From a virus (lineage: Duplodnaviria; Caudoviricetes), in IMG/VR virus record IMGVR_UViG_3300044899_000016, positions 1 to 42,077 of that record: a DNA stretch of 42,077 nucleotides; one strand, written 5' to 3'. Positions 3,101-41,405 of this stretch are shown piece by piece. The notes below the pieces were generated by a model. The model had not been told where the DNA came from and did no database searches. It saw only the letters and a list, made by a program, of their open reading frames with translations. Within the stretch, counting starts at the first letter, position 1. Every line of letters starts with the position of its first letter. Both the position numbers and the translations under genes were made by a program.

Positions 3101-3318
3101 TCACTACTCGCCACTTCTAGCGATACTCGACCAAATGTGACTCGTCGACGACGCCGCACATCGAGCAGTCACAGTAAACGTGACAGCCCGGGCGAACTAC
3201 TCACCGGCCATTTCACACTTCGCGCGCCGTGACTGAGCTCTGAATCTTGAGCGCTGCGCCGTCACACCTGCAGCATCGCCAGAATTGAAGGTGATCGAGC
3301 CACGCTCAAATTGGCGAT
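3093..3318 (+). repeat. Composite palindromic element copy 1 (motif A, three motif B units, two motif A)
   Basis: 3093-3129 and 3229-3304 are inverted copies of 20673-20709 and 20497-20572. Motif B at 3137 (N26), 3180, 3229; motif A at 3107, 3275, 3301. Confidence 0.9.
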
Positions 3319-3328
3319 GCGAGCAGCT

Positions 3329-3343
3329 TTCGTAAAAATAGAC
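3329..3343 (+). promoter_or_regulatory. Conserved upstream motif TTCGTAAAAATAGAC, candidate late-promoter/activator site
   Basis: Identical 15-mer at 36808-36822. Both copies precede late operons (scaffold/capsid and packaging). Confidence 0.55.
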
Positions 3344-3425
3344 CCTTCATCTCCCTTAAATTCTCAATTGTGATGAGCCGCATGCGCTCAAATTTAATTT
3401 TTCAATTGAAAAGGAATTTAAGAAA

Positions 3426-3971
3426 ATGGACGGAGACGAAAACACAAACAACACACCGAACAACGATACACCGGCACCGCCCGCCACAAATGGCGATGCT
3501 CCAGCGAATGATGCGCCGCCGGTAACACCGCCTGTAGTCGAGCCGCCAGCCGCGCCAGTTGTGCCGGATGGCTACGTCAAAGCTGAAGACGTTGAAACTG
3601 AGCGCACGGCTCGCACAGCAGCCGAAACAGCGCGCACGGAAGCTGAGACGCGCGCAACACAAGCCGAAGCTCGCGCTCGCGCCGCAGAGATAAAGGCAGT
3701 CGCGCAAACTTTAGGCTTTAACGATCCGAGCGATGCTGAGAAATTCGTTGCGGCTGATGTGACAGACATCGAAGGCGCGTTAGCGTCGGTGATTGAATCG
3801 AAGCCTTATTTGAAGAAAGCTTCTGAAGCTGTCACGCCGCCTGTTACGCCGACGAATCCGACGAATCCCGCACGGCCTGAAGCGCTCACGCTTGATTCAA
3901 TCAAGACTATGACGCCCGCGCAGATTAACGCGCGCTGGAGCGATGTCAAACAGGCGCTCGCCCGAAAATAG
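3426..3971 (+). CDS. Capsid scaffolding protein
   Basis: Acidic Pro-rich N-terminus, coiled coil, xxPYL motif. Lies directly upstream of the major capsid gene. Confidence 0.75.
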   Translation: MDGDENTNNTPNNDTPAPPATNGDAPANDAPPVTPPVVEPPAAPVVPDGYVKAEDVETERTARTAAETARTEAETRATQAEARARAAEIKAVAQTLGFNDPSDAEKFVAADVTDIEGALASVIESKPYLKKASEAVTPPVTPTNPTNPARPEALTLDSIKTMTPAQINARWSDVKQALARK

Positions 3972-3997
3972 CTCAATAGACCACAGGGCAAATCAAC

Positions 3998-4052
3998 AAG
4001 CAGTGTTACCGAAAGTTACAGTTTCAAGCTGTAACTTTCGGTAACACTGCTT
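3998..4052. repeat. Perfect 24-bp inverted repeat with 7-nt loop
   Basis: AAGCAGTGTTACCGAAAGTTACAG-tttcaag-CTGTAACTTTCGGTAACACTGCTT, between scaffold and capsid genes. Confidence 0.95.
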
Positions 4053-4128
4053 TATAGTGTGCCCCGAACGAAACGCGGCTCAACATCATGTACCGCCAAT
4101 AACCTTCCCTTAAATAAAGGAGCATCGC

Positions 4129-4980
4129 ATGTCAGTTGCAACCTTCATCAATACAGTTTGGGCGGCGGCTCTGCTCGCTGGCCTTCACAAAAATCTCGTC
4201 TTCGCGCAATCCGGCATAGTCAACATGGACTATGAAGGCGACATCACGAAACAGGGTGATCGCGTGAAGATAAACTTTATCGGCGACATCACTGTCTTCG
4301 ATGTCACGCGAAATGCCGACATCCCCGACCCGGAAGAACTCGACACAGCCGCAACCTATCTCGACATTGACCAGGCGAAAGGATTCAACTTCGCGGTTGA
4401 TGACGTGGACAAGGTTCAGGCGCGCGGTGATTTGATTGAAACCGCGATGGGCGAAGCCTCTTACGGCGTGCGCGACAAGGCGGACCAATTCATCGCAGGG
4501 CTTTACACGGATGCGGCGGCGGCGAACCTGATTGGCTCTGACGCCAGCCCGATCACGCCGACGGCAGACACCATGTATGACTACCTGGTTGATTTGAGCG
4601 TCAAGCTTGATGAGGCAAGCGTGCCATCAGGCGGACGCTGGTGCGTGTTGCCACCGTGGTCGCACGGCTTTCTTTTGAAGGACAAGCGTTTTGTGGCGAC
4701 AGGCACTGCCGCTGGTGACGTGACGCGCGCTAACGGCGAAGTCGGCGAAGCGGCTGGTTTTCGCATCCTGAAGTCGAACAACATTCGCAACACGAATTCC
4801 ACGCTCTACAAAATCATGGCCGGATACCCGGGCGCAATCTCCTACGCAGACCAGATTCTTTCGGTTGAAGCTTTCCGCATGGAAAAGAGATTTTCAGATG
4901 CGGTCAAGGGACTTCATGTGTACGGCGCGAAGACCGTCAGGCCGCAGGGTCTGGCTGTCTTGACGGCGAACAAGTCATAA
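4129..4980 (+). CDS. Major capsid protein (HK97 fold, P22 coat-like family)
   Basis: DYEGDI...GDRVKI, LDIDQAKGFNFAVDDVDKVQ, DAVKGLHVYGAKTVRP are typical of this MCP family. AAGGAG RBS present. Confidence 0.9.
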   Translation: MSVATFINTVWAAALLAGLHKNLVFAQSGIVNMDYEGDITKQGDRVKINFIGDITVFDVTRNADIPDPEELDTAATYLDIDQAKGFNFAVDDVDKVQARGDLIETAMGEASYGVRDKADQFIAGLYTDAAAANLIGSDASPITPTADTMYDYLVDLSVKLDEASVPSGGRWCVLPPWSHGFLLKDKRFVATGTAAGDVTRANGEVGEAAGFRILKSNNIRNTNSTLYKIMAGYPGAISYADQILSVEAFRMEKRFSDAVKGLHVYGAKTVRPQGLAVLTANKS

Positions 4981-4993
4981 GGCTTCAGCTCAC

Positions 4994-5057
4994 ACCGCCT
5001 TCTTTAGCGATGGCGCGAGTAACCCGGAAGCATCGCACTTTATAGCGATGCCCGATC
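4994..5057. repeat. Pair of motif A boxes after the capsid gene
   Basis: ACCGC-N8-GCGAT at 4994-5011 and perfect ATCGC-actttata-GCGAT at 5032-5049, followed 4 bp later by GATC (5054). Confidence 0.8.
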
Positions 5058-5085
5058 CCAATCTTTTGCGATAGGAGATTTCAAA

Positions 5086-5478
5086 ATGGCAAACCCTGCT
5101 GCTTTAACACTGACCGCTCTTACGAAGAATTCTTCCGTGACGCAGCCCGCCGCGAACGCGATTGATACGACCGGCACTGTGCCTCTTCCTTCAACCTCAG
5201 AAACTGAGCGCGTGATTCTTGAGGTCATCAATCTCGCTTCTGTCGCTCTGACTGTCAAAGTATTGGCTGGCGACGAAGGCGCAGGCGCGATTCGTCAGGG
5301 ACTTGGCGACCTTTCAGTGAGTCTTGCCGCGACCGGAAGCTCCGGCGATAAGAAGCTGGTCGGGCCGTTTGAGTCCGCGCGCTTCATTCAAGCTGGCGGC
5401 AAAATCAACGTCTCGTTTACTCCGGCTTCAGGTTCGCCGAACGCGACCGTGCGCGCGTACAAGCTGTCGAAGTCGTAA
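5086..5478 (+). CDS. Putative capsid decoration/cement protein
   Basis: 130 aa, beta-rich, GPFESARF motif. Directly after MCP with GGAG RBS. Confidence 0.55.
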   Translation: MANPAALTLTALTKNSSVTQPAANAIDTTGTVPLPSTSETERVILEVINLASVALTVKVLAGDEGAGAIRQGLGDLSVSLAATGSSGDKKLVGPFESARFIQAGGKINVSFTPASGSPNATVRAYKLSKS

Positions 5479-5481
5479 AAA

Positions 5482-5556
5482 CAGTGACGAGTTAAGAGTG
5501 ACGAGTGACGAGCAAAAGTCTCTAACTTGTCACTCGTCACTTGTCACTCGTCACTG
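5482..5556. repeat. Heptamer-repeat hairpin (AGTGACG)n ... (CGTCACT)n
   Basis: About four heptamer units followed by four complementary units, intergenic. Confidence 0.85.
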
Positions 5557-5559
5557 CTT

Positions 5560-5901: not shown

Positions 5902-6289
5902 CTACGAGCGCGAGGTTAAAGAGCAGATGCGTGCGCCCAAACATGGGCGCACCTATCGCCGTTCGCGCATCACACGCGCGGCCTCTTCCTCTCTCCCTAA
6001 CGGACTTCGCACACGCACAACTGAGAAAGGAAATCGGCGCGCCATCGTCGGCTATAAGCTGCATCGCGCGAGCGCGCCCGGCGAAGCTCCTGCCGTTGAT
6101 AAAGGGTTGCTTATCAATTCCATTCAAGCCAAACCTGACGGATTGATAGCAAGGGTTTTCGTCGGCGAGCCATACGGCGCGATTCTCGAATATAGACGAG
6201 ATCGTCCCGTGTTCGAGCCGACGCTTGAAAGGATGCGACCCGGATTCATCGCCGCAATCAACGAGGAAGTGAGCGGGCAATGTCAGTAA
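5804..6289 (+). CDS. HK97 gp10-like neck/tail completion protein
   Basis: HRASAPGEAPAVDKGLLINSI, YGAILEY...RPVFEP motifs. Confidence 0.7.
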   Translation: MRVIARTELTSPILQPGNLKSGVERIVAQTATDYEREVKEQMRAPKHGRTYRRSRITRAASSSLPNGLRTRTTEKGNRRAIVGYKLHRASAPGEAPAVDKGLLINSIQAKPDGLIARVFVGEPYGAILEYRRDRPVFEPTLERMRPGFIAAINEEVSGQCQ

Positions 6290-7476: not shown

Positions 7477-8820
7477 ATGTCAACAACCTTCAAACAGAAA
7501 AATGTCGTCGTCGCCTACTCGCCTATTATCGCTGTGCAGAGCGACATTTTCACGCCACTCGACACGGCTACACAACTGACGGCAGTTCTGCCTCTGCCGC
7601 GCGATGCCAAGCCTTTGCCTAACATCAGGAAGACGAGAGATGAGACGCGCGAGTGCAGAGGCAGGTATTTAATCGGGCGGCGCGTGACATCAAGGCTGGC
7701 GCTCTGGACTCTGCGCTTTACTGACGTGTCTGCTCAATTCGTCGCAGGCATCCTTGCGCTGGCTCAAGGCGCGGCTGCGGCGGCGTCTGGCACGAATGAA
7801 GTGCAGACGTTGACCATCACGGCGACGGGCGGCACTTACAAGCTGCGGGTTACTATCGGCACTGATGTGCAGACAAGCACGGACATCGCATATAACGCGA
7901 ACGCGGCGGCGATTCAGTCTGCATTGGATACGCTCTCTAATCTGGCAAACGGCGACATAGTTGTGAGCGGCACGGGGCCGTTTCCATTAACGGGCGCAGG
8001 CAATCTCGCAGACCTCGATATTCTACCCATCGAAGTTTTGACAGGCTCGCTCACGGGCGGCTCTGCGAGTATCAACACCACAACGCCGGGCGCAGGACGC
8101 TTTCATCAGATCACGCATCTTGATTCTGACGACGTGCCGAAAACAACTTTCGTGATAGGTGTTGAAGATGACTCGGATGAGCCTATCGAAGTCTATAAGG
8201 GCATGTGCGTCAATCGCGTCACGCTCACGGGCGAAGTCAGAGGCAAAATCTCGATGGACGTTGAATTCTGCGGAAGCGCGGACGTTGCCACACTGGGAAG
8301 TTTCGATTTCGCATCGTGCCAGAATCAAGCGGCCATCTATTCAAACGATTGCCAGCTTCTCATCAATTCAGTTGACCGCACGGCAGACCTTCGCCGCTTC
8401 CAGTACACCTATAACCAAAACTTGGCAATTAGCGATGATCCTTTCGTGTTCGATGATGTTGACGCTTCAAGGATTGAGCGCGGGCAGGATGCGGAAGATA
8501 CGCTCTTTAATTTTCAACTCTACGGCACAAAGGCGCATGCGGTCTATGTGGCCGCAAAGAAGGCTGATAGCGAAGACCCGACTATCAGAGCACAAGCTGT
8601 GCTGCCCGTCGCTCTGAGAATCGGCACGGCGAGTGAATACGCGAAGATCATCGCGGCAGGCGCAGAGTTTGCGCTTCAAGACACAGAGCTAGGCTATGCG
8701 GGCGAAGCTAATCGCTCGGTCATTAACGTTGACGCCGTGCCTTACAGCGTCGGCGGGGCAGCGCCTGACAGAGTTGAAGCCTTGCTCGCGCAGCAAAGTA
8801 GATTCTTAGTCGCGCCGTAA
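7477..8820 (+). CDS. Major tail tube protein with inserted beta domain
   Basis: Position, RBS AAGGAG, VYKGMCVNRVTL motif. Internal NEVQTLTITATGGTYKL...IAYNANAAAIQSAL repeat-type domain. Confidence 0.7.
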   Translation: MSTTFKQKNVVVAYSPIIAVQSDIFTPLDTATQLTAVLPLPRDAKPLPNIRKTRDETRECRGRYLIGRRVTSRLALWTLRFTDVSAQFVAGILALAQGAAAAASGTNEVQTLTITATGGTYKLRVTIGTDVQTSTDIAYNANAAAIQSALDTLSNLANGDIVVSGTGPFPLTGAGNLADLDILPIEVLTGSLTGGSASINTTTPGAGRFHQITHLDSDDVPKTTFVIGVEDDSDEPIEVYKGMCVNRVTLTGEVRGKISMDVEFCGSADVATLGSFDFASCQNQAAIYSNDCQLLINSVDRTADLRRFQYTYNQNLAISDDPFVFDDVDASRIERGQDAEDTLFNFQLYGTKAHAVYVAAKKADSEDPTIRAQAVLPVALRIGTASEYAKIIAAGAEFALQDTELGYAGEANRSVINVDAVPYSVGGAAPDRVEALLAQQSRFLVAP

Positions 8821-8823: not shown

Positions 8824-8864
8824 GTGACTGCTCGATGTGCGGCGAACTCCGGAGAGACACACTT
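8824..8864 (-). repeat. Solo motif B unit
   Basis: 41-bp perfect inverted match to 35719-35759, starting 3 bp after the tail tube stop codon. Confidence 0.95.
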
Positions 8865-9101: not shown

Positions 9102-9176
9102 TTTCAATTTTGACAGTTTTGGACGCTTGAAGACAGGGGTGTCTTTTGAGAGATGCGCCTTTGAAGGAGAAAGATC

Positions 9177-10613: not shown

Positions 10614-10841
10614 GTGAGCAGCGCAATGAATCCTATATATCTGAACGCTGAAAACAGGGCTTACGTTGGAGATATCCTCAACGGCTGCATTGTTATGACA
10701 GCCAACGATGCCGACCCGCCATCTGGCACGATTAACTTTTACGTGAATGATGAAAACTTTGCTACCGTAGGCGAAGGGGTTGTTGCGACGTTTATCAGAA
10801 TAGACGGACAGTGGCGCGAGATAGCCGAACATGGGCTTTGA
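10614..10841 (+). CDS. Hypothetical protein
   Basis: ORF in operon orientation; no recognisable motif. Confidence 0.4.
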   Translation: MSSAMNPIYLNAENRAYVGDILNGCIVMTANDADPPSGTINFYVNDENFATVGEGVVATFIRIDGQWREIAEHGL

Positions 10842-10940
10842 TAACAACTCTTTTCAATGAAGCGATTCACCATAGGCGATTCACTTTGAAAGGGAGCGTC
10901 AATATCTCAACACTCCCTTACTTTAGGTTTGGAATCATCA

Positions 10941-11162
10941 ATGCCAATCACTAAAGAAAATATCAACGAAGTCTTCACCTATCACGCGCCCGATGAAGCG
11001 CAGATAGAATCTTTGAACTCTGTGCGCTATCACGCGAAGGTTTTAGCTCACGCTATCTTGAATGAAGTGCCAGCGTGCGCAGACCAGCAAGCCGCACTGA
11101 GGTTGTTAAGAGAAGCCGTGATGACAGCGAATGCCGCCATCGTACTGAAAGGAATTATCTAA
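10941..11162 (+). CDS. Acb2/Tad1-like helical hairpin protein (candidate cyclic-nucleotide sponge)
   Basis: FTYHAP...Q...VR...AK.LA..I...P...AL..LREAVMTANAAI matches the pattern I recall for the Acb2/Tad1-related hairpin family. Confidence 0.6.
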   Translation: MPITKENINEVFTYHAPDEAQIESLNSVRYHAKVLAHAILNEVPACADQQAALRLLREAVMTANAAIVLKGII

Positions 11163-11601: not shown

Positions 11602-11956
11602 CTTCTCTGATTGCCCAAGCCCTTGCGCGCGTCGCTATGAAGATGGTGAGCGCGTCACGGATTTACCAGACCTTTGCGAGACGTGCGACGTGCGCTTTCA
11701 GTTGAAGTTTTTTGAAGAGAGCGCGCGAGCCGAACTAAGGCGCAGATTTCCCGATGGCTGCGCGTGGACGTTTGAAACTCTCTCGGCAGATGTGGCGAGG
11801 GTGCAGCGCATTGACAAAGATGTCAGAGGCAAAGGCTACCCGCGCAAGTGCGGCGAGTTGGAAGCGCGACTCTTAGACATCCTCAGAAGTGAAGAGTATA
11901 GGCCGCTCAGAATCATGCGCTGGGAAGACGCACAGAAGAGGGAGCGTGAAAAGTGA
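11549..11956 (+). CDS. Tail assembly chaperone extension (T-like), probably reached by frameshift
   Basis: Overlaps the G-like ORF in the +1 frame; CxxxC and CETC motifs. Confidence 0.65.
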   Translation: MAREIVNLHEQLRKLNPSFSDCPSPCARRYEDGERVTDLPDLCETCDVRFQLKFFEESARAELRRRFPDGCAWTFETLSADVARVQRIDKDVRGKGYPRKCGELEARLLDILRSEEYRPLRIMRWEDAQKREREK

Positions 11957-12557
11957 AGTTCGGCACATCAAAATTCTGGCAAGAGTTTCAAAAGCAGTTC
12001 GGGCACGCGCCGCAGGCGATTGAAAAGCAGGGCACTGAAACTCTGCTCACTTTAATTTCTTCCGATGCGCAGATAGAGCGCGTGGAATGGGCAGCTTACT
12101 TGCTCGGCACAATTCGCAACGAGTGCGGCTCAAACATGCAGCCCGTTAAAGAGATTAAGGCAGCAGTGGGCACGCTCGTTTGGGAGAAGTATCAAAGAAT
12201 TATTGGTCGTCGGGCTTCTATGGACGTGGCTACTCGCAACTGACGCTCAAAGGAAACTATCAGCAATTTTCTCAACTGCTCTTTAATGACAATCGCCTTG
12301 TTAAGAATCCTGACTTAGTTATGAAGCCGGAAGTAGGCTATCAAATTTTAGCGACAGGTTGCGTGCGAGGGCTTTTCCGTCGCCGCTCGAAAACCTCTGC
12401 CTTTAAGCTCTCGGATTTTCTCAACGACAAGATTAAAGATTACGTGGGCGCGCGCCAGATCGTGAACGGCGTAGGTGGCGCTGCTCGACAGTGGGCTTTG
12501 CGAGTCGGCGATTACTCTGAGCGTTACGAGACTTGCTTGCGGGCAAGTCAGGCGTGA
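11953..12557 (+). pseudogene. Glycoside hydrolase family 19-like endolysin, split by a frameshift near 12190-12200
   Basis: ORF 11953-12243 has AAYLLGTIRNEC...PVKE. ORF 12180-12557 has FYGRGYSQLT..NY, LVKNPDLV, ARQIVNG. One extra A in TATCAAAGAAT would join them (YQKNYW). Confidence 0.8.
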
Positions 12558-12590
12558 CGGCGCAGCGGAAAGGCTTAGGAGCTCAGTCAC
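12554..12590 (-). repeat. Solo motif B unit
   Basis: GTGAC-N27-GTCAC whose GTGAC contains the endolysin TGA stop. Interior resembles 20536-20572 and the reverse complement of 35814-35850. Confidence 0.9.
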
Positions 12591-15342: not shown

Positions 15343-15415
15343 TCCGCGCTCGTCATAAATAGCGAGCGGCGCCAAGGCGTGACGCGATGGCTGGCGCGCG
15401 CGCTCGAGCGGTCAC
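15341..15415 (+). repeat. Motif A (GATC-N4-CTCGT-N8-GCGAG) plus motif B unit after TMP
   Basis: GATC at 15341 overlaps the TMP stop; box at 15349-15366. GTGAC-N27-GTCAC at 15379-15415 shares GTGACGCGATGGC with 35585. Confidence 0.85.
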
Positions 15416-20470: not shown

Positions 20471-20736
20471 TCCGCCGGCGGCATCGTCACTTCCGGCGTG
20501 GCTCGATCACCTTCAATTTTGACGATGCTTCAGGTGTGACGGCGCAGCGCTTCAAGTTTGAAGCTCAGTCACATTTGAAAACGTGACTGACTAGGCTAAT
20601 TGCTTCCTGAAATGGTCACACATTCTGTGACTGCTCGATGTGCGGCGAACTCCAGAGAGACACACTTGCGCGCGAGTATCGCTAGGAATGGCGAGTGATG
20701 ATCATGTGACCTGGATGCGTCGCCGAAGATAGCGAG
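20469..20736 (-). repeat. Composite palindromic element copy 2 (inverted)
   Basis: Motif A at 20483, 20509, 20678, 20719; motif B at 20536, 20583, 20627. 20583-20673 is an inverted copy of 35713-35803 with 3 mismatches. Confidence 0.92.
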
Positions 20737-27477: not shown

Positions 27478-27755
27478 GCAGACAAGTCTCTCGACATCTT
27501 CAACTTTATAGAGCTGGCATCGCCGAAGACGGCGAGCGTGGACGAATCATCGCGCGCGAGATTTGGATAGCTCGAATGCGCGAGCTTCTCAATGAAACAG
27601 AAGCTCAAGACTTCGACGCCTATCTTACCTTGCGCGCCTCACTGTCAGTTTTCGACCTCATTGAGATTGCAGGCGAAGAGATGAAAGACGCTTTGACGAA
27701 GCGCGGCAGCTTTAAGCCTGAAGAAATGACGCTCATCAGGAGTGCAATTAAATGA
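27474..27755 (+). CDS. Hypothetical protein
   Basis: ATGA overlaps at both ends. Confidence 0.5.
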   Translation: MSRQVSRHLQLYRAGIAEDGERGRIIAREIWIARMRELLNETEAQDFDAYLTLRASLSVFDLIEIAGEEMKDALTKRGSFKPEEMTLIRSAIK

Positions 27756-27998: not shown

Positions 27999-28880
27999 AT
28001 GAGTACGAGTCAACAGGCGCTAGCGCGCCTCGAAACTTCTAATCAGCTTCAATCAGCAGACGACTTTGACATCTTCCGCATTGGCGAAACGCTTGCTAAA
28101 TCGGGCTACTTCGCGGACGCCAAAGATGTGGCGCAATGTGTGGTCAAAGTCTTGGCCGGGCGCGAGCTTGGCATTCCGCCGGTTGCCGCGATGACCGGTG
28201 TTTATATTATTCAGGGCAAGCCAAGTCTGAGCGCAAACCTAATGGCGGCGATCATCAAGCGAAGCGGGAAATATAACTACCGCGTCGTTCAGATGGACGC
28301 GCAGGTTTGCGAGATAGAGTTTTTCGAGCAGGGCGCGTCAATCGGGAAATCCGCTTTCTCTTTGCAGGACGCGAAAGTCGCGGGCGCGCTGGACGGCAAG
28401 AATAAGCATACCTGGGCAGCCTTCCCGCGCAACATGCTTTTTGCTCGCGCGCTCTCGAACGGCGCGCGTTGGTACACGCCAGATATTTTTTCGGGACCGA
28501 TCTATACGCCAGAGGAATTAGACGCGCGCGTTTCATCCGAGGGCATACCTGAGGCCGTTACGCCTGCACCCGTGCGCCAGCATCAACCGGCTCCTACCGC
28601 CACAACTGACGATGATCCTGTCGAGAGGGAGCGGCAAGAGATTGTCAAAGACATCTATGCGACCTGTGCGCTTCTTAACGAGAAAGGCGATAAGGCCATA
28701 GACGCGCAAGGCCGTGAAGCTCTCTGGAAGTCCACGTCCCTCAAGATTTTTGTCAACAAGGAATTCAAAGTAGGCGACGGTCTTGAGGCTCTATCTGTTG
28801 AATATTTGAAGAAGCTTCACGGGATGCTGAATCTCAGGCTTGACGCAATCACCCCTAAAGACGGAAGCCTATTACCCTAA
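27999..28880 (+). CDS. RecT/Red-beta-like single-strand annealing protein
   Basis: GRELGIPPVAAMTGVYIIQGKPSLSANLM, W..FPRNMLFARA, YTPEEL motifs. AAGGAG RBS. Confidence 0.75.
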   Translation: MSTSQQALARLETSNQLQSADDFDIFRIGETLAKSGYFADAKDVAQCVVKVLAGRELGIPPVAAMTGVYIIQGKPSLSANLMAAIIKRSGKYNYRVVQMDAQVCEIEFFEQGASIGKSAFSLQDAKVAGALDGKNKHTWAAFPRNMLFARALSNGARWYTPDIFSGPIYTPEELDARVSSEGIPEAVTPAPVRQHQPAPTATTDDDPVERERQEIVKDIYATCALLNEKGDKAIDAQGREALWKSTSLKIFVNKEFKVGDGLEALSVEYLKKLHGMLNLRLDAITPKDGSLLP

Positions 28881-30198
28881 AACTAAGAGCCGCGAGCATT
28901 GGCTAGATGCTCGCGGCTCAATCTACAAAGAAAGGAAGATAGAAACAGTGTCAACAACAATACCATCATCCACATCTTCAAATCAATCTTCTTCTACGAA
29001 GAAAAAGGGCGCGAGCGACATTAAAGGAGCGATTGAGGAAAATCGTAAGTTCCCTTCTGAGCTTGTCGAAAAAGGCTGGCGGCTGGCAAACGAAGGACGT
29101 CGCTTTTACGCGCACAATGACAAGACGGAGGCAATGACCGTCTTGCACGATACGATAGAGGCCGTCGCTGAAGAGGCAACAGAGATAGACGCTCGCAGCC
29201 AGAGCTACGGGCAGCACGAATTCATCCCGAAACAGGATAGCAAAACAATCTGTGCGCTCTGCTTTCAAGGTCGCAATGGAAAGCCGCATCGCCAGTGGAA
29301 AGAGGCACAGAAGAAAAATGATCTGGCATCGCAGGAAACGGCGAGCGGGACCGACGAGTCTGGCTCTCAAAAGCGCGTGATTGCTTTAGCTTTCCTCGCA
29401 GACTTAGAAGACGAGCAGAAAGGGCGCTGGGCGACGCTATGCGAGTACGAACGCCTCTATGAAGCCGCTACTAAGATTCGTGATAAGAGACGGCTCACGA
29501 AAGAGCGCATGAGGATCGTAGCTGACTATGATCGCGCCTGGGATGAAGCCATTAAAGCCCTCGACAATAACGAGGACGTCGTTCAGGAAGTGCGCGACCG
29601 TGTAGAAGCGAGCGGCTCGACCATCGCAACAGATGCCGATAGTGCCGGCGGATCGGCTCTCGTTGAAAGTGGCGAGCCTCCAGCGTGGCATGAGTATTTC
29701 GAGCAGACGCCAGGCGAAGGCTGCTTTCTCGGATGCGGCAAGCCGGAAGATGACCCTATCCATCACGAGCCTGCTACAGCTGAGCGCGCCGAGAATGGCG
29801 ATGCTGCAGAAACCTTGGCGCCGCTCGCCGAAACTGACGATGCGGGATCACAAAGCCCTTTCATCTTCACAAAAGAAATCGAAGTCGAATTAGCCGACTC
29901 CGATTACAAAGCTAAATCCCGCCAACTCGCTTTCCTTCGCGTCCAGATCGAAGAGCTACAGGCTGAGAAGAAAACCGCTGACGAAGGCTACAAACAGAAA
30001 ATAGGCGGGCTTGAAGAGCAATGCACTGAGCTATTCCGCTCAATTCGCAGAGGCCGCGACACGCTTAAGCTAGAAGTTTTCGAGCGGCGCGACTATGGGC
30101 GCAAAGTTGTCGAGACAGTGCGCGCGGACACGCAAGCGGTTGTCGAGTCGCGCCCGATGTTGCCGCGCGAGCTTCAGCAGCCTTTACCTTCAATCTAA
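28840..30198 (+). CDS. Mosaic hypothetical protein containing five in-frame motif A boxes
   Basis: Long ORF (true start uncertain) with two small Cys/His clusters and a C-terminal coiled coil. Confidence 0.6.
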   Translation: MTQSPLKTEAYYPKTKSREHWLDARGSIYKERKIETVSTTIPSSTSSNQSSSTKKKGASDIKGAIEENRKFPSELVEKGWRLANEGRRFYAHNDKTEAMTVLHDTIEAVAEEATEIDARSQSYGQHEFIPKQDSKTICALCFQGRNGKPHRQWKEAQKKNDLASQETASGTDESGSQKRVIALAFLADLEDEQKGRWATLCEYERLYEAATKIRDKRRLTKERMRIVADYDRAWDEAIKALDNNEDVVQEVRDRVEASGSTIATDADSAGGSALVESGEPPAWHEYFEQTPGEGCFLGCGKPEDDPIHHEPATAERAENGDAAETLAPLAETDDAGSQSPFIFTKEIEVELADSDYKAKSRQLAFLRVQIEELQAEKKTADEGYKQKIGGLEEQCTELFRSIRRGRDTLKLEVFERRDYGRKVVETVRADTQAVVESRPMLPRELQQPLPSI

Positions 30199-30209: not shown

Positions 30210-31070
30210 ATGGAAATCATTTCTCTTCCGCCGCTACCTAAAGACGTACAGCCGCGCCTACGCATAATTAGCTTAGGCGCTGGCGTGCAAAGCACAACGA
30301 TGCTTCTTATGGCTCTACACGGCGAAATTACACCTTTACCTGACTGCGCTATTTTTGCTGATACGCAGTGGGAAGCTCGCAAGGTTTATGAGCATCTAGG
30401 CTTTCTCTCTAGGATCGCGGCAAAGCACGCCTTTCCAATTCTAACTGTCACTATTGGCAACATACGCGATGATGCATTCTCAACTCGCGCAGCAAGGAAG
30501 CGTTTCGCTTCCTTGCCTCTCTACGTCCGAAATCTCGCAGGCGGACAAGGGATGCTGCGCCGCCAATGTACCCGTGAATACAAAATCCAACCCATCACGA
30601 GCAAGACGCGCGAGCTACTAGGTTTCAAGCCGAAACAACGGATTCCAATAGGTATTTATGTTGAGCGCTGGATGGGCATTTCATGGGATGAACGCCAGCG
30701 AATGCGATATAGCGAGGAAAGATGGGCGGTCAATCGCTACCCGCTCATTGAGCGCCAGATGACGCGCACGGACTGTTTAGTTTGGCTCGCGCGGCATGAC
30801 TATCCCCTTCCGCCAAAAAGCGCGTGTCTTGGTTGTCCCTTTCACGATGATAATTATTGGCGCAACCTGCGGGACAACTCCCCTGATGAATTTGAGGACG
30901 CTTGCCTTTTCGATGACCAGATTCGCGCAGACCCTACTGGACGGGTTGAACAAGACGCCTATCTCCATCGCTCGCTAATTCCACTCAGGCAGGTTGATTT
31001 TTCAACGCCGGAGGATCGCGGGCAAATGAATTTCTTTATTAACGAATGTGAAGGGCTTTGCGGGGTGTGA
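30210..31070 (+). CDS. PAPS-reductase-like / adenine nucleotide alpha-hydrolase family protein
   Basis: PP-loop SLGAGVQST, IFADTQWE, RQCTREYKI, KSACLGCPFH, ECEGLCGV. Confidence 0.75.
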   Translation: MEIISLPPLPKDVQPRLRIISLGAGVQSTTMLLMALHGEITPLPDCAIFADTQWEARKVYEHLGFLSRIAAKHAFPILTVTIGNIRDDAFSTRAARKRFASLPLYVRNLAGGQGMLRRQCTREYKIQPITSKTRELLGFKPKQRIPIGIYVERWMGISWDERQRMRYSEERWAVNRYPLIERQMTRTDCLVWLARHDYPLPPKSACLGCPFHDDNYWRNLRDNSPDEFEDACLFDDQIRADPTGRVEQDAYLHRSLIPLRQVDFSTPEDRGQMNFFINECEGLCGV

Positions 31071-32242: not shown

Positions 32243-32278
32243 TTCGATTTTGACAGTTTTGGAAGGAGGGAAGCAGGG

Positions 32279-32557
32279 ATGGCAGATATAAAACACAAAG
32301 CAGATTGCGAAGTCCTGTGCAGAAATGGTGAGTGTGATTGTGGCGCAAGCTCTCAGGAAGAAACCGAACGTTGCAGCTGGCTATACCTTCAAGGCGGGCA
32401 GTGTGGCATCAAATGGGTGACGCATCAATTTGAGCCAGAGGACAGACGACTTACAAAACGATTCTATTGCAGAAAACATGCTGCCATTATGCACACCTTA
32501 GGTTTTCAGTTATCAAGAATAGTAAAGGGATTTCAGTCACTTTTCGAGGGCAAATGA
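32279..32557 (+). CDS. Cys-rich hypothetical protein
   Basis: Strong GGAGG RBS; multiple Cys/His. Confidence 0.5.
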   Translation: MADIKHKADCEVLCRNGECDCGASSQEETERCSWLYLQGGQCGIKWVTHQFEPEDRRLTKRFYCRKHAAIMHTLGFQLSRIVKGFQSLFEGK

Positions 32558-32781: not shown

Positions 32782-33002
32782 GCGAAGCAACTTTGAATCC
32801 GCCAAGCCTTGAGCAAATCAACCGCGACTTGGCTACAACCGTCTCGGAAGAGATGCAGAAAAACGAACGGCTGCTGTCAGCTTTGCAAGAAATCGAAGAG
32901 ATAATTGTGGCTTGCATCAAAGACAGCGGGAAGAAAACGTTGTGCGAATTCTGCGCCAATAAGATTCACCGCCTCATCAGGGGAATAAGAGGCAGACAAT
33001 GA
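32778..33002 (+). CDS. Hypothetical protein
   Basis: ATGA overlaps; CEFC motif. Confidence 0.5.
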   Translation: MSEATLNPPSLEQINRDLATTVSEEMQKNERLLSALQEIEEIIVACIKDSGKKTLCEFCANKIHRLIRGIRGRQ

Positions 33003-33505
33003 AAGCTCTAACGCTTCATCAGTATTGGGCACACGCTATGTCGCCGCTTCTGCTCAAGAAAATCGAAACGCGCGGCTGGTACACGCCCTTTCGCGGAACG
33101 CTCGCAATCCACGCTGCCGCTACAGTGCCAGCTTATGCGCGAGAAGATTTCGAGTTGAATCCTACGGCGCTGGTCGCCTTCGGCGCACCGCCGCTTGGCA
33201 TCCGTCACGGCGACGAATTAACGAAACTGCCGCTTGGCGCAGTCGTCGGCGTCTGTGATCTGGTCGCATGCGTGACGACAAATATAGTTTGGCCGACTGA
33301 CCCTATCACGCGAAAGACTTATGAGCGCCCGGCAAAGCAGAGTCTCGAATACGCTTTCGGAAATTACGATCCGAACCGCTTCATGTGGATTACTGAAAAC
33401 ATGCGCGTCTTATCTGAGCCGGTTCCGTGCAAGGGCCATCAGCGATTATGGGATTTGCTGCCTGACGTAGAGCTTCGCATCAATGAGCAACTCAGACAAA
33501 GCTAA
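32999..33505 (+). CDS. ASCH domain protein
   Basis: MKALTLHQYWA...KKIETRGW...RGTLAIHAA...PVPCKGHQRLW. Confidence 0.88.
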   Translation: MKALTLHQYWAHAMSPLLLKKIETRGWYTPFRGTLAIHAAATVPAYAREDFELNPTALVAFGAPPLGIRHGDELTKLPLGAVVGVCDLVACVTTNIVWPTDPITRKTYERPAKQSLEYAFGNYDPNRFMWITENMRVLSEPVPCKGHQRLWDLLPDVELRINEQLRQS

Positions 33506-33899: not shown

Positions 33900-34745
33900 G
33901 TGAACCCGGAGCTATCGCCAAAATTGAAGAGGTCGAGTGTCGCCAGAAAGGGCGATGCGGTACTGATCGACGATAACACCGCTTCTGGCGATGGGCGCCA
34001 GCAACATCATATCCAGCGAGACAGCCTGAAGGTAAAACGTGCGAGCTATCCCGGCGGCAAAAACGGCGCAGGCGTCTATCAAAATATCATCTCTCTCATG
34101 CCGCCTCACGAAACCTATATCGAAGCCTTCTTAGGCGGCGGCGCGATTATGCGTTTGAAGCGACCAGCCGCGCGCAACATCGGGATTGATTTAGACGCGG
34201 CTGCCGTCAACGCTTTTCCTAGCGATGCAGTACCGCGACTGAAATTGATTGAAGGCGATGCGCTATCAATCTTGCGCGCTTGGCGCTTTGAAGGTGACAG
34301 CTATAGGCACACTCTAGCTTATATTGACCCGCCCTACCTTATGAGCACCCGCCGGCAGCATCGCCCTTTATATAGATGCGAGCTGTCGAGCGAAGCCGAT
34401 CATGTGCGCTTGCTTGAAATCCTGATGAATTTGCCGTGCATGGTCATGCTCAGTGGCTATCACTCGAAACTATATGACCGCGCTCTTTCGCATTGGCGGC
34501 GCGAAGAGTTCTACACGTCAGACAGAGGCGGGAATCGAAGGCTAGAGGTCGTCTGGATGAACTTCGCGGAGCCGTTAGAGCTTCACGACTATCGCTATTT
34601 GGGGCGTGGCTTCCGGGAACGCGAGCGCATCAAGAGAAAGCGTCTGCGCTGGCGCGCGCGTCTCGAAAGGATGCCCTCCTTAGAGCGTCACGCGCTGATG
34701 GCGACGATTGACGAGCTACGCCATGGATCCAATCGTCAAGAATAG
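33900..34745 (+). CDS. Dam-like (D12 class) N6-adenine DNA methyltransferase with basic C-terminal extension
   Basis: YPGGK, YIEAFLGGGAI, YIDPPY, MLSGY, EVVWMNF motifs, plus extra LHDYRYLG.GFRERERIKRK..RW tail. The first ~40 codons run through four motif A boxes. Confidence 0.9.
   Translation: MNPELSPKLKRSSVARKGDAVLIDDNTASGDGRQQHHIQRDSLKVKRASYPGGKNGAGVYQNIISLMPPHETYIEAFLGGGAIMRLKRPAARNIGIDLDAAAVNAFPSDAVPRLKLIEGDALSILRAWRFEGDSYRHTLAYIDPPYLMSTRRQHRPLYRCELSSEADHVRLLEILMNLPCMVMLSGYHSKLYDRALSHWRREEFYTSDRGGNRRLEVVWMNFAEPLELHDYRYLGRGFRERERIKRKRLRWRARLERMPSLERHALMATIDELRHGSNRQE
33914..34020. repeat. Cluster of four motif A boxes at the 5' end of the adenine MTase
   Basis: Boxes at 33914, 33939, 33975, 34003; a fifth at 34732-34749 spans the stop codon. 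Confidence 0.75.
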
Positions 34746-34768
34746 CGAGGGAGTACCGGAGAAATGAT

Positions 34769-34957
34769 ATGGCAGACGTAGATAATACCGAGATGGAGAA
34801 AGCAATTGATGAATCAGTTTTTCTCATCATCGTGCGCCAATTTGAAGAGATAACTAACCGGCTCAAATCAGAGGTTAAGGATTTGGAGCGCGAGAGGCGT
34901 ATAGCTTATAGCAAGGGCTATCAAGCTGGCTTGCGTGCTGCTGAGAAAAAGAAGTGA
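34769..34957 (+). CDS. Small coiled-coil hypothetical protein
   Basis: Between the two MTases; AYSKGYQAG motif; GGAG RBS. Confidence 0.55.
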   Translation: MADVDNTEMEKAIDESVFLIIVRQFEEITNRLKSEVKDLERERRIAYSKGYQAGLRAAEKKK

Positions 34958-35790
34958 ACCTCATCTTGTCTCTTTTTCCCGGTATAGACTTGCTCGGCAA
35001 AGGTTTCGAGCTTGAGGGCTATTGTGTAGTGCGCGGTCCAGACATCATTTATGGCGGCGACATAAGAAGCTTCCGCGCGCCCGCAAACCGCTTTGACGGC
35101 ATCATCGGCGGCTCTCCCTGTCAGGACTTCAGCTTAAAGCGTCGCACGCCGCCGACGGGCGAAGGCGTAGAGATGATGCGACAGTTCGGGCGCGTCGTCT
35201 TAGAGTCTGAGGCCGCTTGGTTTCTGCTTGAGAACGTGCCCGCCGCGCCTGACTTGAAGGTCTTTGGCTACACCGTTCAGCGCTTCGATTTGAACGCGCG
35301 CGAGTGCGGCCTTGCTCAGTCGCGTCTCAGACATTTTCAATTCGGCTCGCGCTCTGGTCTTGTTATCTCGCCGGAAAGAAGAAAGCCGAAAGGCAAAGCC
35401 GAAGCCATCTGTCTTGCGTCTGAAGGCGAGAGCGCGAGAGCGCGGCGCGCTTGGGGCGACTTCTGCGAGCTTCAGGGCTTGCCGCGCGATTTCGAGCTTC
35501 CGGGCTGGTCTATCGCTGCCAAGTATAGAGCCGTCGGCAACGGCGTGCCCGTGGCCGTGGCGCGCGTGATTGCGCGGGCGATCCGTGACGCGATGGCAGC
35601 GCCGCGCGGTCGCAGATTCACAGATGTCAAATTGTGCGCGTGCGGTTGCGGTCGCATCCTTGAAGGTAAACAGAAGGCGGCGACGCCAGCATGCAGGAAG
35701 AGACTTGAAAGAGCGCGCAAGTGTGTCTCTCCGGAGTTCGCCGCACATCGAGCAGTCACAGAATGTGTGACCATTTCAGGAAGCAATTAG
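34954..35790 (+). CDS. Compact C5-cytosine DNA methyltransferase with C-terminal zinc finger
   Basis: Motif I SLFPG, IV GGSPCQDFS, VI LENV, VIII QSRLR, X GNGVP. Very short target-recognition region. Extra CACGCG...TPACRKR tail. Confidence 0.9.
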   Translation: MNLILSLFPGIDLLGKGFELEGYCVVRGPDIIYGGDIRSFRAPANRFDGIIGGSPCQDFSLKRRTPPTGEGVEMMRQFGRVVLESEAAWFLLENVPAAPDLKVFGYTVQRFDLNARECGLAQSRLRHFQFGSRSGLVISPERRKPKGKAEAICLASEGESARARRAWGDFCELQGLPRDFELPGWSIAAKYRAVGNGVPVAVARVIARAIRDAMAAPRGRRFTDVKLCACGCGRILEGKQKAATPACRKRLERARKCVSPEFAAHRAVTECVTISGSN

Positions 35791-35922
35791 CCCGGTCAGT
35801 CACGCTTTTAATTGTGACCGAGTTCCTAAATCTTTCCGCAACGCCGTCACGCTTGAGCTGCACTCGCCACGTTCGGCGATATGCGATCCGCCGGCGTCAT
35901 CGTTACTTCCGGCGTGACGATC
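35713..35922 (+). repeat. Composite palindromic element copy 3, overlapping the C5-MTase 3' end
   Basis: Motif B at 35723, 35767, 35814 (plus 35585 inside the gene); motif A at 35863 and 35899. Confidence 0.92.
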
Positions 35923-36309: not shown

Positions 36310-36801
36310 ATGAACTCTCGCATGGACACGCCCGCAATCGCCCGCCGAAAGCCTGCCGCAACTGCCAACTGCCAACTGCCAACTGCCAACTCTATTGAGT
36401 GTCCGCGCGAGAGCATTCCAGCTTCAACGCCTTCTTTCAAATCCTTCGCGCATATCCGCAACCCGAAAGTGCGCCGCGCGAAAGAGTATGAGCAGCACCT
36501 GCTTTTCATGCGAGATTCATTTCCTGAATATAGCGCCGGGATTGAAAAGCAGATTGCATATGCAAGATCGCAAGCTGAGCGCGGGCGTGCCTCAGATCAC
36601 GACCAAGTTCTAAAGCAGATGGAATCATGCGCGCTCTCGTGCCGTGAAATCAGTGACGATCTTTCAATCCCTTACGCTACTGTCTATAAGATTTTGCAGG
36701 AGTATGCTGCAGCGGGCGTTGTCATTATCCGCCAGCATGCAGGCCGGGCAGGAAACAAGCCTGTCTGCTACTACTCGCTATCGCACGCACAGACGCTTTA
36801 A
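36310..36801 (+). CDS. Winged-helix DNA-binding protein, candidate late-gene activator
   Basis: LSCREISDDLSIPYATVYKILQEYAAAGVV HTH; last gene before the packaging operon. Confidence 0.65.
   Translation: MNSRMDTPAIARRKPAATANCQLPTANSIECPRESIPASTPSFKSFAHIRNPKVRRAKEYEQHLLFMRDSFPEYSAGIEKQIAYARSQAERGRASDHDQVLKQMESCALSCREISDDLSIPYATVYKILQEYAAAGVVIIRQHAGRAGNKPVCYYSLSHAQTL
36359..36391 (+). repeat. Heptamer tandem repeat (CAACTGC)x4+
   Basis: Seen directly in the sequence. Confidence 0.9.
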
Positions 36802-37439: not shown

Positions 37440-37563
37440 AAGCAGATATGTCGAGCGGCACGGCGAGCGTTCTGGTCGCGCTCATAGGTTTATTCGGAAT
37501 GCTTTCGAGCAAAGTATTGGATGACTACTTGAAAGAGCGCAAGCGCGAGCAGGCGAAGAAATA

Positions 37564-39220: not shown

Positions 39221-39236
39221 GAAGGAGAAAATTAAA

Positions 39237-40595
39237 ATGATGAATTATGTGAACCAATTTACTTCGCGCATCTCGGCGTGGATGCGCGGGCAAAGAATCA
39301 CGGGCGGCGTCGGCGTAATCGCCAGCGCGCGCGACTTCTTTGACGGTTGTGTGCCGCCCTCGCTTGTGGTGAAGCCGGATGCGCCCGACGACAATATCTT
39401 TATCAATTACGCTGAAGTGATTGTTTCAAAGGGCGTCGCGTTTCTGTTCGGCGAGCCTTTGAAGATTTCTGTCGGCGAGGGCGCGGATAAGAGCGGCGAA
39501 GAGTATTTGAAAACGGTTTGGCCGGAAGATGCGCGCATGGAGGATTTTCACGAGGCCGCGACAGAGGGCGCAATCTCTGGCGACGCCTATCTGAAAATTT
39601 CTATTCAGGCCGACGGCAAGCCCCGCGTCACTGTCGGCGATCCTGACTGCTACACAGTCGAAACCGACCCGCACGATGTGACGCGCGCTTTGAAGTTCAC
39701 TTGTCAGTACGAGATTCCCGGCGCGAGCGCAGATAAGCCAATTCTCTATAAGGAAGAGACGAGCCGCAATGAGGATGGCAAATCATGGCGCATTCAGGAA
39801 TTCCAGAGCACGGATGCCGGTAAGAATTGGCAGACGCTTTCTGATAACCAATGGAATTTCGCTTTCGCGCCCGTTTTCCATTGCAAGAATCTGCCGAAGT
39901 CGAAAAGCTTCTATGGCCGTCCCGATCTTCGCGAGGACGTGCGCAGGCTCATCACGGCCATCTCGCGCCTTGATGGTATGTGCAATAAGGTTGTGCGCGT
40001 CCATTCAAGCCCTAAGCCTTATGCGACCGGGCTTCGCAAGCAGGACATGGAATTCAACACCGAGGGCGTGATGTTCTTGCCCGGCGGCGTGAACAATGTA
40101 GAGGCGAAGATTGGCCTTTTGGAGATGACGGGCGACCTTATGGGCGCGCGCCAGTTCAGAAAAGAGTTGCGTGAAGCACTTTCCGAGATGACGCGGACGC
40201 CGGAAGTGTCAACAGGTAAGATGGAAAACACCGGGCAGCTTTCAGGCGTCGCGCTCCGCATCCTGTACGGTCCGCTCATTGACCAGACGAAGCTCAAGCA
40301 GCGCTCCTTTGGCAAGATGATTAAAGATTGCGTCGCGGCGCTTCTGGCTATCGGCGGGAAGAAGGGTGAAGTCGCTTTGAATTGGGCTGATCCCTTGCCC
40401 GCGAATGAGGTTGAAGCTGTGCAGGTCGCCGAAGGCAAGAGGCGGCTGGGCTTCAGCGAGCAGACGCTAATCGGCGAGCTTGGCGGCGATGCTGCGAAGG
40501 AGAAAAAGCAGCGTAAGATGGACGTGGCTGATGCGGGCACGTCCATCTTGACGGCGTTCGACAACGGCGCGGGCGCAGACCAGCTTGCAGCCTAA
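39237..40595 (+). CDS. Portal protein (SPP1 gp6-like)
   Basis: INYAEVIV...FLFGEP, GDAYLKI, FYGRPDL, LSGVALRILYGPL motifs; follows terL. Confidence 0.9.
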   Translation: MMNYVNQFTSRISAWMRGQRITGGVGVIASARDFFDGCVPPSLVVKPDAPDDNIFINYAEVIVSKGVAFLFGEPLKISVGEGADKSGEEYLKTVWPEDARMEDFHEAATEGAISGDAYLKISIQADGKPRVTVGDPDCYTVETDPHDVTRALKFTCQYEIPGASADKPILYKEETSRNEDGKSWRIQEFQSTDAGKNWQTLSDNQWNFAFAPVFHCKNLPKSKSFYGRPDLREDVRRLITAISRLDGMCNKVVRVHSSPKPYATGLRKQDMEFNTEGVMFLPGGVNNVEAKIGLLEMTGDLMGARQFRKELREALSEMTRTPEVSTGKMENTGQLSGVALRILYGPLIDQTKLKQRSFGKMIKDCVAALLAIGGKKGEVALNWADPLPANEVEAVQVAEGKRRLGFSEQTLIGELGGDAAKEKKQRKMDVADAGTSILTAFDNGAGADQLAA

Positions 40596-41284
40596 GATAC
40601 ATATCATACATATCTTGTGTATCTTGTGTATGAACAGCCGGTGGAATAGTTTTTGGAATAATTTTTCAAGACTATTCCACTTCTTCAAACAACATGCCTG
40701 ACATCTACGAATTAGCTCAAGAACAAAAAGACGCTCTTCTGAAAAGTGAAAGGCGCGCATCATCTGAATTGGTGCGCGCCTTTGGTCTTGCATACAGTCG
40801 CATTCAAGAGCGCATTGCAGCTCTCACCACTCAAATTGACGAGGCCAGATCAAAGGGTGAAATAATCTCTTCGAATTGGCTCTATGAGCGTGACCGTCTC
40901 ACCAATCTAAAAGTTGATATCGAACGCGAAATGCGACGCTTCGCGCAACTCGCCACTGAGCGCGTGACAGCAGAGCAGGGAAGCGCCATCGAAATAGCCG
41001 CGGATGACGCACAGCGCCTGCTCAGCGCGTCTTTTCCAGAAACAGGTTCTACCCCAGCCGTCACTCTCTCGGGGCTGAATTCTGAGGCCGTGGCCGCTCT
41101 CGCCGGATTTGCAGGTGATGGACAGCCCCTACGCCTGCTTTTCGAAAAGATTGCTCCGCAGATGGCGACAGCGCTTTCTGACGAGCTTGTCTCGGGCGTG
41201 ATAGAAGGTGCGCCCGCGCGCGTGATTGCGAGCCGGATACGTGAGCGGTCAGGAATCGGCCTGGCGCGGGCGTTGGTTGTCCAA

Positions 41285-41301
41285 CGTCAGGAAACCTTAA
41301 G
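41285..41301 (+). repeat. 17-bp direct repeat CGTCAGGAAACCTTAAG, copy 2
   Basis: Identical to 2699-2715. Confidence 0.9.
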
Positions 41302-41330
41302 GGCTTACCGCACGGCGCAGCTATCTCAAT

Positions 41331-41405
41331 ATCAGAGCTTCCGACGTGACTCGATCAACTTCAATTTTGGCGATGCTTCAGGTGTGACTTCGCAGCTCAG
41401 TCACA
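41331..41405 (-). repeat. Partial composite element inside gpF
   Basis: Matches about 20490-20573, with a 16-bp deletion in the motif B unit (GTGAC-N11-GTCAC at 41384-41404). Confidence 0.88.

Follow-up and report, generated by a model that had tools for sequence, protein, structure and literature searches.

Two predicted anchor-and-ruler methyltransferases and their built-in restriction-site panels in a temperate tailed phage

What reads the inverted repeats of the form GTGAC-N27-GTCAC that are scattered through the genome of a temperate tailed phage, and what do they do for it? The window analyzed here is the whole 42,077-nucleotide stretch of virus record IMGVR_UViG_3300044899_000016 (IMG/VR; Duplodnaviria, Caudoviricetes), one virus record with integrase, repressor, RecT-like annealase, terminase, portal, capsid, and tail genes. 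It contains these repeats, here called B units, and a gene for a C5 cytosine methyltransferase (MTase) whose 3′ end enters an array of three of them. We conclude that the units belong to a system that is real, widespread, and unlike those described before, consisting of two anchor-and-ruler MTases with built-in panels of restriction sites; its anatomy is solid, its writing mechanism is likely, and the purpose proposed for it is tentative. The second MTase, an amino-methyltransferase with units of its own, and an overlap of targets with −35 promoter boxes go beyond what the original prediction, made from the sequence of the window, had seen.

B units and the base they present

The original prediction had listed B units with 27-bp spacers, an N26 copy, and a deleted copy, and all proved to lie where it placed them: there are 12 true N27 units (7 exact and 5 with one arm mismatch), an N26 copy at 3137, and an N11 remnant at 41384. 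The distribution of GTGAC-to-GTCAC distances peaked at 27 (7 exact pairs, 14 with at most one mismatch), versus 0 to 3 for each other spacer from 20 to 35. Exact N27 units arose at a mean of 0.01 (maximum, 1) in 200 dinucleotide shuffles, and random pairing of the 52 × 49 arms gives 0.06 expected N27 pairs. Two further N27 matches with at most one mismatch, at 7121 and 14477, break the +5 rule described below on one side and are probably due to chance, and N26 matches at 5498 and 5505 are part of an unrelated heptamer hairpin. The units are listed below (no strand is assigned to them).

3137..3172: B unit with an N26 spacer, after the MuF gene; both targets in TCGA
3180..3216: B unit, one arm mismatch; targets CCGG/CCNGG and GGCC/CCGG
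3229..3265: B unit, exact; targets AGCT and GCNGC
8824..8860: solo B unit, one arm mismatch, 3 nt past the stop of the open reading frame (ORF) 7477-8820; identical at 41/41 positions to the reverse complement of 35719-35759
12554..12590: solo B unit, exact; its left-arm TGA is the stop of the endolysin-like ORF 12180-12557
15379..15415: solo B unit, exact, following the tape-measure-like gene, behind an A unit (see below)
20536..20572: B unit, exact, within an inverted copy (144 nt, 86%) of the 3′ array
20583..20619: B unit, exact; T now at both targets
20627..20663: B unit, one arm mismatch; targets TCGA and CCGG (now T)
35585..35621: B unit, one arm mismatch, inside the MTase gene, in the linker ahead of the finger; targets T and C
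35723..35759: unit 1 of the 3′ array, one arm mismatch; targets CCGG (inner C) and TCGA
35767..35803: unit 2 of the 3′ array, exact; targets CCWGG outer C (now T) and CCGG/CCNGG inner C
35814..35850: unit 3 of the 3′ array, exact; both targets now T (AGCT and GCNGC in copies)
41384..41404: N11 unit; the stretch between both targets is lost, and the arms aim at the two strands of one GCWGC

Arms and spacing had been put forward as the conserved features. Both are conserved, but not alone: the fifth interior base (+5) is C or T in all 24 half-sites of the 12 window units (16 C, 8 T), and the fuller consensus is Y-GTGAC-N4-C-N17-G-N4-GTCAC-R. Among 480 half-sites (240 units), the +5 base was C in 417, T in 49, A in 9, and G in 5; in a set of 167 units, it was C in 88% and T in 8%. 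Comparison of 139 homologous pairs showed +5 to be the least variable folded position, with 15 differences (12 of them C/T) versus 35 to 99 elsewhere. At 630 lone half-sites there was no +5 signal (C 0.224, versus 0.222 in controls). Any base follows the target C (G 116, C 90, T 54, and A 33 in 334 half-sites), purines precede it at a frequency of 0.43, and its contexts are not limited to CCGG and TCGA; a specificity for CCGG/TCGA or for CpG was rejected. The enzyme therefore looks context-blind, and the contexts look like a panel of many restriction sites. The +5 pattern, with its C-to-T footprint, is likely to be the trace expected of a context-blind C5 enzyme held by two arms, with methylation of the target presumed.

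Of 293 target Cs, 96% lay inside a 4- to 5-bp palindrome (55% after column shuffling; 48% in the background) and 90% at what we take to be the cognate 5-methylcytosine (m5C) position of type II MTases (shuffle, 36%; background, 26%). Such positions were assigned for TCGA, CCWGG, CCGG, AGCT, GGCC, GCNGC, GGNCC, and GATC; the palindrome test is independent of that assignment. The commonest contexts were TCGA (54), CCNGG (outer C 53, inner C 37), AGCT (29), CCGG (24 and 22), and GCNGC (24), followed by GGCC (18), GGNCC (16), GATC (14), GCGC (12), and CGCG (12). Where a choice exists the register is strict (GGCC 18:3, GGNCC 16:1), and 6-bp palindromes at the target were threefold enriched (117/293 versus 39). 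At least 14 contexts occurred at the inferred target, unlike the one fixed sequence that surrounds the target base of a type II restriction-modification MTase. AGCT, GGNCC, CCWGG/CCNGG, GCCGGC, GAGCTC, and RTCGAY appear as m5C motifs, with positions not confirmed, in PMC11954522. Forty pairs of units overlap, at offsets of 14 (21 pairs), 15, 16, 17 (9 pairs), 19, 20, and 21, and mostly place top- and bottom-strand targets on one palindrome. Elsewhere in the window phage, GATC, GGCC, CCWGG, and GGNCC are depleted (observed/expected ratios of 0.43, 0.55, 0.56, and 0.26); genome-wide, panel sites are not specially changed.

Two methyltransferases and their association with the units

The enzyme at the 3′ array has the following parts.

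34954..35790, + strand: C5 cytosine MTase of 278 residues; target-recognition domain (TRD) deleted; C-terminal Cys4 finger and basic helix; 3′ end enters the array
35635..35718, + strand: CxCGCG...ACRKR finger and basic helix, the putative GTGAC reader

It matches PF00145 (E 1.5e-21), has the Rossmann fold with catalytic motifs IV, VI, VIII, IX, and X, and shares with 40 homologs invariant PC, ENV, QxRxR, and GNGV motifs and invariant finger cysteines (C228, C230, C232, and C247). The best fold match of its AlphaFold2 model (mean confidence [pLDDT] 89) is M.HaeIII. The gap between motifs VIII and IX is about 18 residues, versus about 98 in M.HaeIII, so that the TRD between them is absent (about 80 residues lost); nor does the window enzyme have the several TRDs in a long variable region that characterize SPR-type enzymes. 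In the region of the S-adenosylmethionine pocket, FPGID stands in place of FxGxG, and D30, aligned to the motif II Glu, is followed by a 15-residue deletion. A homodimer was predicted with a score of 0.81, versus 0.48 for the best control, with at least 86% of contacts common between runs and pLDDT of at least 87; 20 of the 30 solved pairs attained the score mark, as did 1 of the 23 single chains, counts that apply only roughly here. The model supports a symmetric homodimer formed through the β2 edge (residues 24 to 28). The finger had no Pfam match below E 0.07. It and the basic helix would read GTGAC, and arrays of GTGAC-N4-C track finger-bearing homologs. Pfam, PHROG, NCBIfam, PADLOC, and Atlas name this protein and its Dam-like neighbor only as generic MTases.

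The link between units and enzyme was sought without bias, by counting all inverted 5-mers with spacers of 8 to 60 in the flanks of homolog loci. GTGAC/27 was the top inverted pair, with 136 units in 36 of 44 close loci; neither the 55 finger-less relatives nor the 90 distant MTases had it among their top pairs. The reverse search, a tandem-N27 scan of viral contigs, found this MTase within 3 kb in 7 of 29 loci; most of the remainder were iteron-like perfect repeats, judged by eye to be unrelated. Perfect 45-bp tandem repeats with GTGAC/GTCAC on MTase-free viral contigs (L002, L004-L008, L010, L012, and similar loci) likewise look iteron-like and are a different element. Of 34 loci with flanks, 13 have arrays both before and after the gene, and in 23 of 44 an arm supplies the gene's stop codon with its TGA. 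One clade (five rows, 98% support in a quick tree) has the arms GTTAC-N27-GTAAC with the +5 rule unchanged; variant arms also occur at L228 and L129 (GTAAA-N27-TTTAC and GTGAA/TTCAC). In 31 finger-bearing loci lacking N27 pairs, tandem half-sites lie 23 or 24 bp apart, often in the gene's linker, with C at +5 in 171 of 241 and a listed context in 140 of 241, versus 25 and 9 of 86 in 42 finger-less loci. The idea that zinc-finger-anchored C5 MTases face inward on each unit is thus strengthened by the co-occurrence at 36 of 44 loci, the conserved +5 C, the predicted dimer, and the lost TRD; a CCGG/TCGA preference is not supported.

Among 7999 proteins scored, 3749 were homologous, the finger not being present in all. 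The gene is carried by tailed phages, inovirus-like contigs, and a plasmid; annotated phages hold only 1 homolog and plasmids 2, none named beyond "hypothetical." Neighbor clustering at 90 loci gave the Dam-like gene as the only recurrent partner besides viral genes; no restriction gene or transposase recurred there, and a clean empty site was not found. A genome-wide host motif was rejected: the strict pattern had 0, 5, 6, 10, and 0 matches in five host assemblies, all but 2 on the MTase contig. One genome (G015; loci L502 and L503) carries 15 units over 36 kb, several solo units beginning at a stop codon, ahead of the next ribosome-binding site. At L133, a four-unit array (10807-11089) recurs as an inverted repeat 7 kb off (17928-18197). 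At L475 (5486-6060), about 150 codons of the C5 MTase are deleted between short repeats, with both arrays intact and a Dam-like gene next.

The Dam-like enzyme has anchors of its own, called A units (MTCGYYR-N4-YRRCGAK; no strand assigned).

33900..34745, + strand: Dam-like amino-methyltransferase of the D12 class; short between its motifs; C terminus basic, helical, and conserved
33914..33956: two A units at the 5′ end of this gene
34732..34749: A unit at its 3′ end; targets GTAC and GATC
35863..35916: two A units beyond the B array, with targets GATC, AGCT, CCGG, and GATC/CATG
1651..1668: A unit after the tape-measure-like stop of a lower-depth relative
3107..3124: A unit that directly follows the stop codon of the C-terminal MuF part; targets GATC and TCGA
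15349..15366: A unit straight after the tape-measure-like stop; targets GATC and GCGC
20483..20500: A unit in a GATC-bounded module, inverted relative to the B array as compared with 35885-35920
20678..20736: two A units; targets GATC, GCGC/CGCG, GGCC, and CCWGG
6248..6265: exact A unit within a neck/connector gene
27519..27536: exact A unit within ORF 27474-27755; one target AGCT
29328..29841: four A units (29328, 29659, 29785, and 29824) within ORF 28840-30198; targets GGNCC, GATC, TGCA, AGCT, and GCGC
3480, 11782, 16609, 16696, 17046, 18087, 20267, 20837, 22786, 28596, 32634, 34691, and 39624: one-mismatch A units inside genes

Most Dam-like homologs start near residue 49. The core TCGYYR-N4-YRRCGA has 57 exact matches in 30 of 103 loci around the gene, versus 4 in far flanks. 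The A target, the base seven beyond this 16-mer, is C in 65% and A in 28%, and is palindromic in 90% versus 48%; among adenine targets, 27 of 32 lie in palindromes. In the window, 9 anchors match exactly and 29 nearly so, versus 0 to 1 and 0 to 4 in 12 shuffles (chance expectation, about 2 of the 29). At 51 of 58 window targets the base is A or C, 38 of these being palindromic, and many anchors lie inside coding genes. A 39-nt repeat common to 9103-9141 and 32243-32281, straight after stop codons, looks like a worn A unit.

Possible functions and relation to known systems

In the mechanism that we favor, a predicted homodimer of the TRD-less C5 MTase would use the units as operators, its fingers gripping the two GTGAC arms, and would methylate on each strand the cytosine that lies five bases in from the arm. 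We regard it as highly probable, judging from the sequence patterns above, that the enzyme methylates outside its recognition sequence, whatever the context, and only where both arms are present. With targets at the host-modified position of many restriction sites, the outcome would be a self-written sampler of host-type marks. If marks are always written and yet selected to resemble those of host restriction-modification (R-M) systems, they must be read by host R-M proteins. Marked palindromes, mostly hemimethylated, might then benefit the remainder of the molecule, either by recruiting the host's cognate methyltransferase to phage DNA or by tying up restriction enzymes at sites that these cannot cut. 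That marked units blunt type II restriction in cis in this way is a tentative proposal; the A anchors, spread along the genome in genes under coding constraint, are as a benefit in cis would predict. A unit lying on a −35 box could also exert feedback on the enzyme's own promoter, a weaker suggestion drawn from six loci of one clade and four sites of the A system. The objections to the type II cutting, sensing, and type IV explanations set out below led us to rank a protective cis effect first, a sensor second, and cleavage of the marks third.

Several observations weigh against this protective reading. An exact unit is missing from the vicinity of about 8 of the 44 close homologs. Decay has gone further in distal units than in proximal ones (C in 30 of 42 versus 268 of 300; P = 0.005), and in one genome (G021) all 7 B units are at the gene, as in several other complete genomes among the 150 of 296 matches listed. 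Outer-C CCWGG (53) and TCGA (54), both frequent, are not confirmed as common host marks. The literature searched held no precedent for a few marked sites protecting others, and, according to an EcoSal review, no inhibitor acting directly on type II systems has come to light.

The next-best explanation, possible though less probable, is that the dimer acts mainly as a repressor, bound to unmethylated units that lie at its promoter, within its own gene, and at junctions between genes. It would come off once these had been methylated by the dimer itself or by any host type II methyltransferase, so that the panel would reflect the modification state of the host and set the timing of phage transcription after replication. 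This would suit the −35 overlap: in 6 of 61 B loci the target coincides with the G of a TTGACA box that has a −10 box and, six bases later, a leaderless-looking ATG, and GTCAA falls at the A target at 4 sites (0 at 12 other offsets). It would also suit the placement of distal arrays near stop codons (15 of 36 versus 21% expected; P = 0.004; the arm TGA is itself the stop in 9 of 36, P = 0.08), tandem arrays inside the MTase gene in another clade, and the exact cognate register of the contexts. Precedents exist in the regulation of the CfrBI and EcoRII MTases (PMC12707154) and in stoperators (PMC9283540). The six promoter loci form one clade, however, and 5 of 10 host assemblies (incomplete metagenome-assembled genomes) have no other PF00145 gene. 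Moreover, C-to-T changes at the target (39) exceed G-to-A changes at the symmetric base (24, with 7 of them −35 boxes). This strand bias suggests that the phage enzyme writes the mark itself, which would erase the sensor's signal.

More doubtful still is that the marks serve as bait for modification-dependent (type IV/IIM) nucleases like McrA, McrBC, Mrr, MspJI, DpnI, GlaI, or BisI, which would destroy or excise the gene before wider harm is done and drive recombination between arrays. The contexts match such sites (RGmCY, GmCNGC, RmCGY, GmCCGGC, SmCNGS, mCNNR, and GmATC, as given in PMC3874153), and overlapping units would give two-strand marks. The N11 remnant is fused at two targets, and a piece of array replaces part of MuF; the internal MTase deletion at L475 left its arrays intact, MTase-free arrays occur in eight virus records (all incomplete), and the gene is present in unrelated viruses. 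Yet 29 A anchors kept inside genes would render the genome fragile, the purine frequency before the target argues against tuning to McrBC, 6-bp palindromes surpass the need of low-selectivity type IV enzymes, and breakpoints at target bases were not seen, the repeat boundaries lying mostly at arm edges. Host counts (McrBC in 1 of 10 and Mrr_N in 1 of 10, versus 2 of 14 and 4 of 14 controls) were uninformative.

It is improbable that unmarked arrays are cut by type II enzymes to release or shuffle a cassette that the MTase only guards. The arrays do read like a polylinker, lie on both sides of the gene in the 13 loci noted above, and include a GATC-bounded module inverted between its two window copies. 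The gene body, however, is not depleted of these sites (observed/expected ratio of about 1; own-panel 6-mers, 56 versus 29 expected), so it would be cut too, and the genome holds hundreds of them; type II excision of an intact cassette was rejected on the first of these grounds.

Slightly less credible again is mutational upkeep, in which the target C serves only autoregulation and contexts repaired by host Vsr after m5C deamination persist best: the exact m5C register and C-to-T decay would fit, but the amino-methyltransferase panel behaves alike, with most of its adenine targets palindromic and no T:G mismatch arising there. Transcribed guides, with units resembling TIGR or box C/D elements in length and +5 rule, directly 3′ of the gene and giving a TRD-less enzyme many specificities, are scarcely plausible, because the two targets are mirror-symmetric, both orientations, inverted arms, and varied linkers occur, interleaved pairs keep 27 (14 + 13, 17 + 10, and so on) like a rigid duplex ruler, no Rfam match was found, panel sites are unchanged genome-wide, and no Cas or Nop-domain partner was found among 61 ORFs scanned.

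How does the system compare with those already known? Type II C5 MTases such as M.HaeIII and M.HhaI (PF00145) have the same fold and the catalytic motifs named above; the window enzyme differs in lacking a TRD and in having a C-terminal finger, a predicted dimer, and a target that appears to lie outside the recognized sequence. The MTases of the Bacillus phages SPR, phi3T, and rho11s recognize GGCC, CCGG, CCWGG, GCNGC, GAGCTC, and TCGA through several TRDs and mark every such site; the set is nearly the same, but here the specificities are written in the DNA beside the anchors. In engineered finger-targeted MTases and in the two-site ruler of DNMT3A/3L, a DNA-binding module brings a catalytic domain to a C close by, or two active sites act at a fixed distance on opposite strands; the present case is a natural viral system with coevolved arrays. 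Integron attC sites and mycobacteriophage stoperators (PMC9283540) resemble the units in lying at many places along a genome, often at gene ends, with a stop codon inside the arm. In contrast to both, the units are symmetric two-arm sites tied to a methyltransferase and a modified base, with no recombinase linked, and unlike stoperators they are two-fold symmetric with a predicted dimer rather than asymmetric with a monomeric repressor. In CfrBI, SsoII/Ecl18kI, and EcoRII (PMC12707154), the MTase acts on its own promoter region through a separate DNA-binding part. There a single cognate site or helix-turn-helix operator is involved, whereas here there are 4 to 30 anchored targets, set in the contexts of many foreign restriction sites and present 3′ of the gene and along the genome as well. 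Hia5/Hin1523 and M.EcoGII, small virus-borne nonspecific MTases with little context preference (PMC3299994 and PMC5778455), modify DNA broadly and carry a divergent TRD; in the present system lone half-sites gave no signal, and the anchor-plus-offset rule is strict. The literature searched, mostly without subscription papers, contained no description of these arrays or of an MTase that acts outside its site.

On balance we incline to the view that two independently evolved "ruler" methyltransferases (C5 and amino), in viruses of many bacterial phyla, have swapped the TRD for an anchor domain and forge the marks of a dozen host R-M systems at built-in sites, and that they make up a new anti-restriction or restriction-sensing device whose specificity resides in the DNA. 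An MTase modifying a base at a fixed distance outside its recognized sequence would, if real, do for modification what type IIS enzymes do for cutting and would offer a ready 250-residue tool for site-directed methylation, a natural, compact, anchor-programmable enzyme. A natural polylinker that evolved twice with different chemistry and is read in three geometries would point to selection by host R-M on marked sites, which current models of phage anti-restriction do not explain, and it bears on the role of thousands of orphan viral MTases.

The phage, its assembly, and neighboring genes

Contigs of soil run X1, possibly the source, show the main phage to be circular and about 38.6 kb long (about 2695-41283; depth, 16 to 19). 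They connect 41254-41313 with 2695-5506 at a depth of 17, and the MuF gene is intact there; by these joins and depths, a split MuF in the main phage was rejected as an assembly chimera. The window ends (1-2718, depth 8; 41284-42077, depth 6.4) derive from lower-depth relatives, so the 41384 remnant lies outside the main genome; in its relative, an array remnant with the N11 unit (about 41338-41420) takes the place of about 100 bp of MuF. In the chimeric ends, a tape measure, an A unit, and two chaperone-like ORFs stand in an order permuted relative to the main phage. Blastocatellia records occur among close protein homologs.

Several features lie near the MTase genes or elsewhere in the window. 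An ASCH-like protein (32999-33505; Atlas 0.93; PF04266 in 58% of the cluster), 400 bp upstream of both MTase genes, could be a modified-base reader and is not a recurrent neighbor among the 90 loci. A PAPS-reductase/SspD-like gene (30210-31070) also lies near the MTases and has homologs near the MTase in L001 and L022. Within the tail region, 10929-11162 encodes an Acb2/Tad1 hairpin-domain protein (PF24729, E 1.6e-10), likely an anti-defense sponge, and the endolysin-like gene (11953-12557, in two frames), with a B unit at its end, stands between tail chaperone-like genes and the tape-measure-like gene. Tandem heptamer repeats at 5479-5559 (an inverted pair) and 36359-36391 are unrelated to the units and common to many other X1 contigs. 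A 39-bp inverted repeat (3986-4064) separates the scaffold and capsid genes, and a DUF559/Vsr-like endonuclease gene (41588-42076, − strand) is carried by the lower-depth relative.

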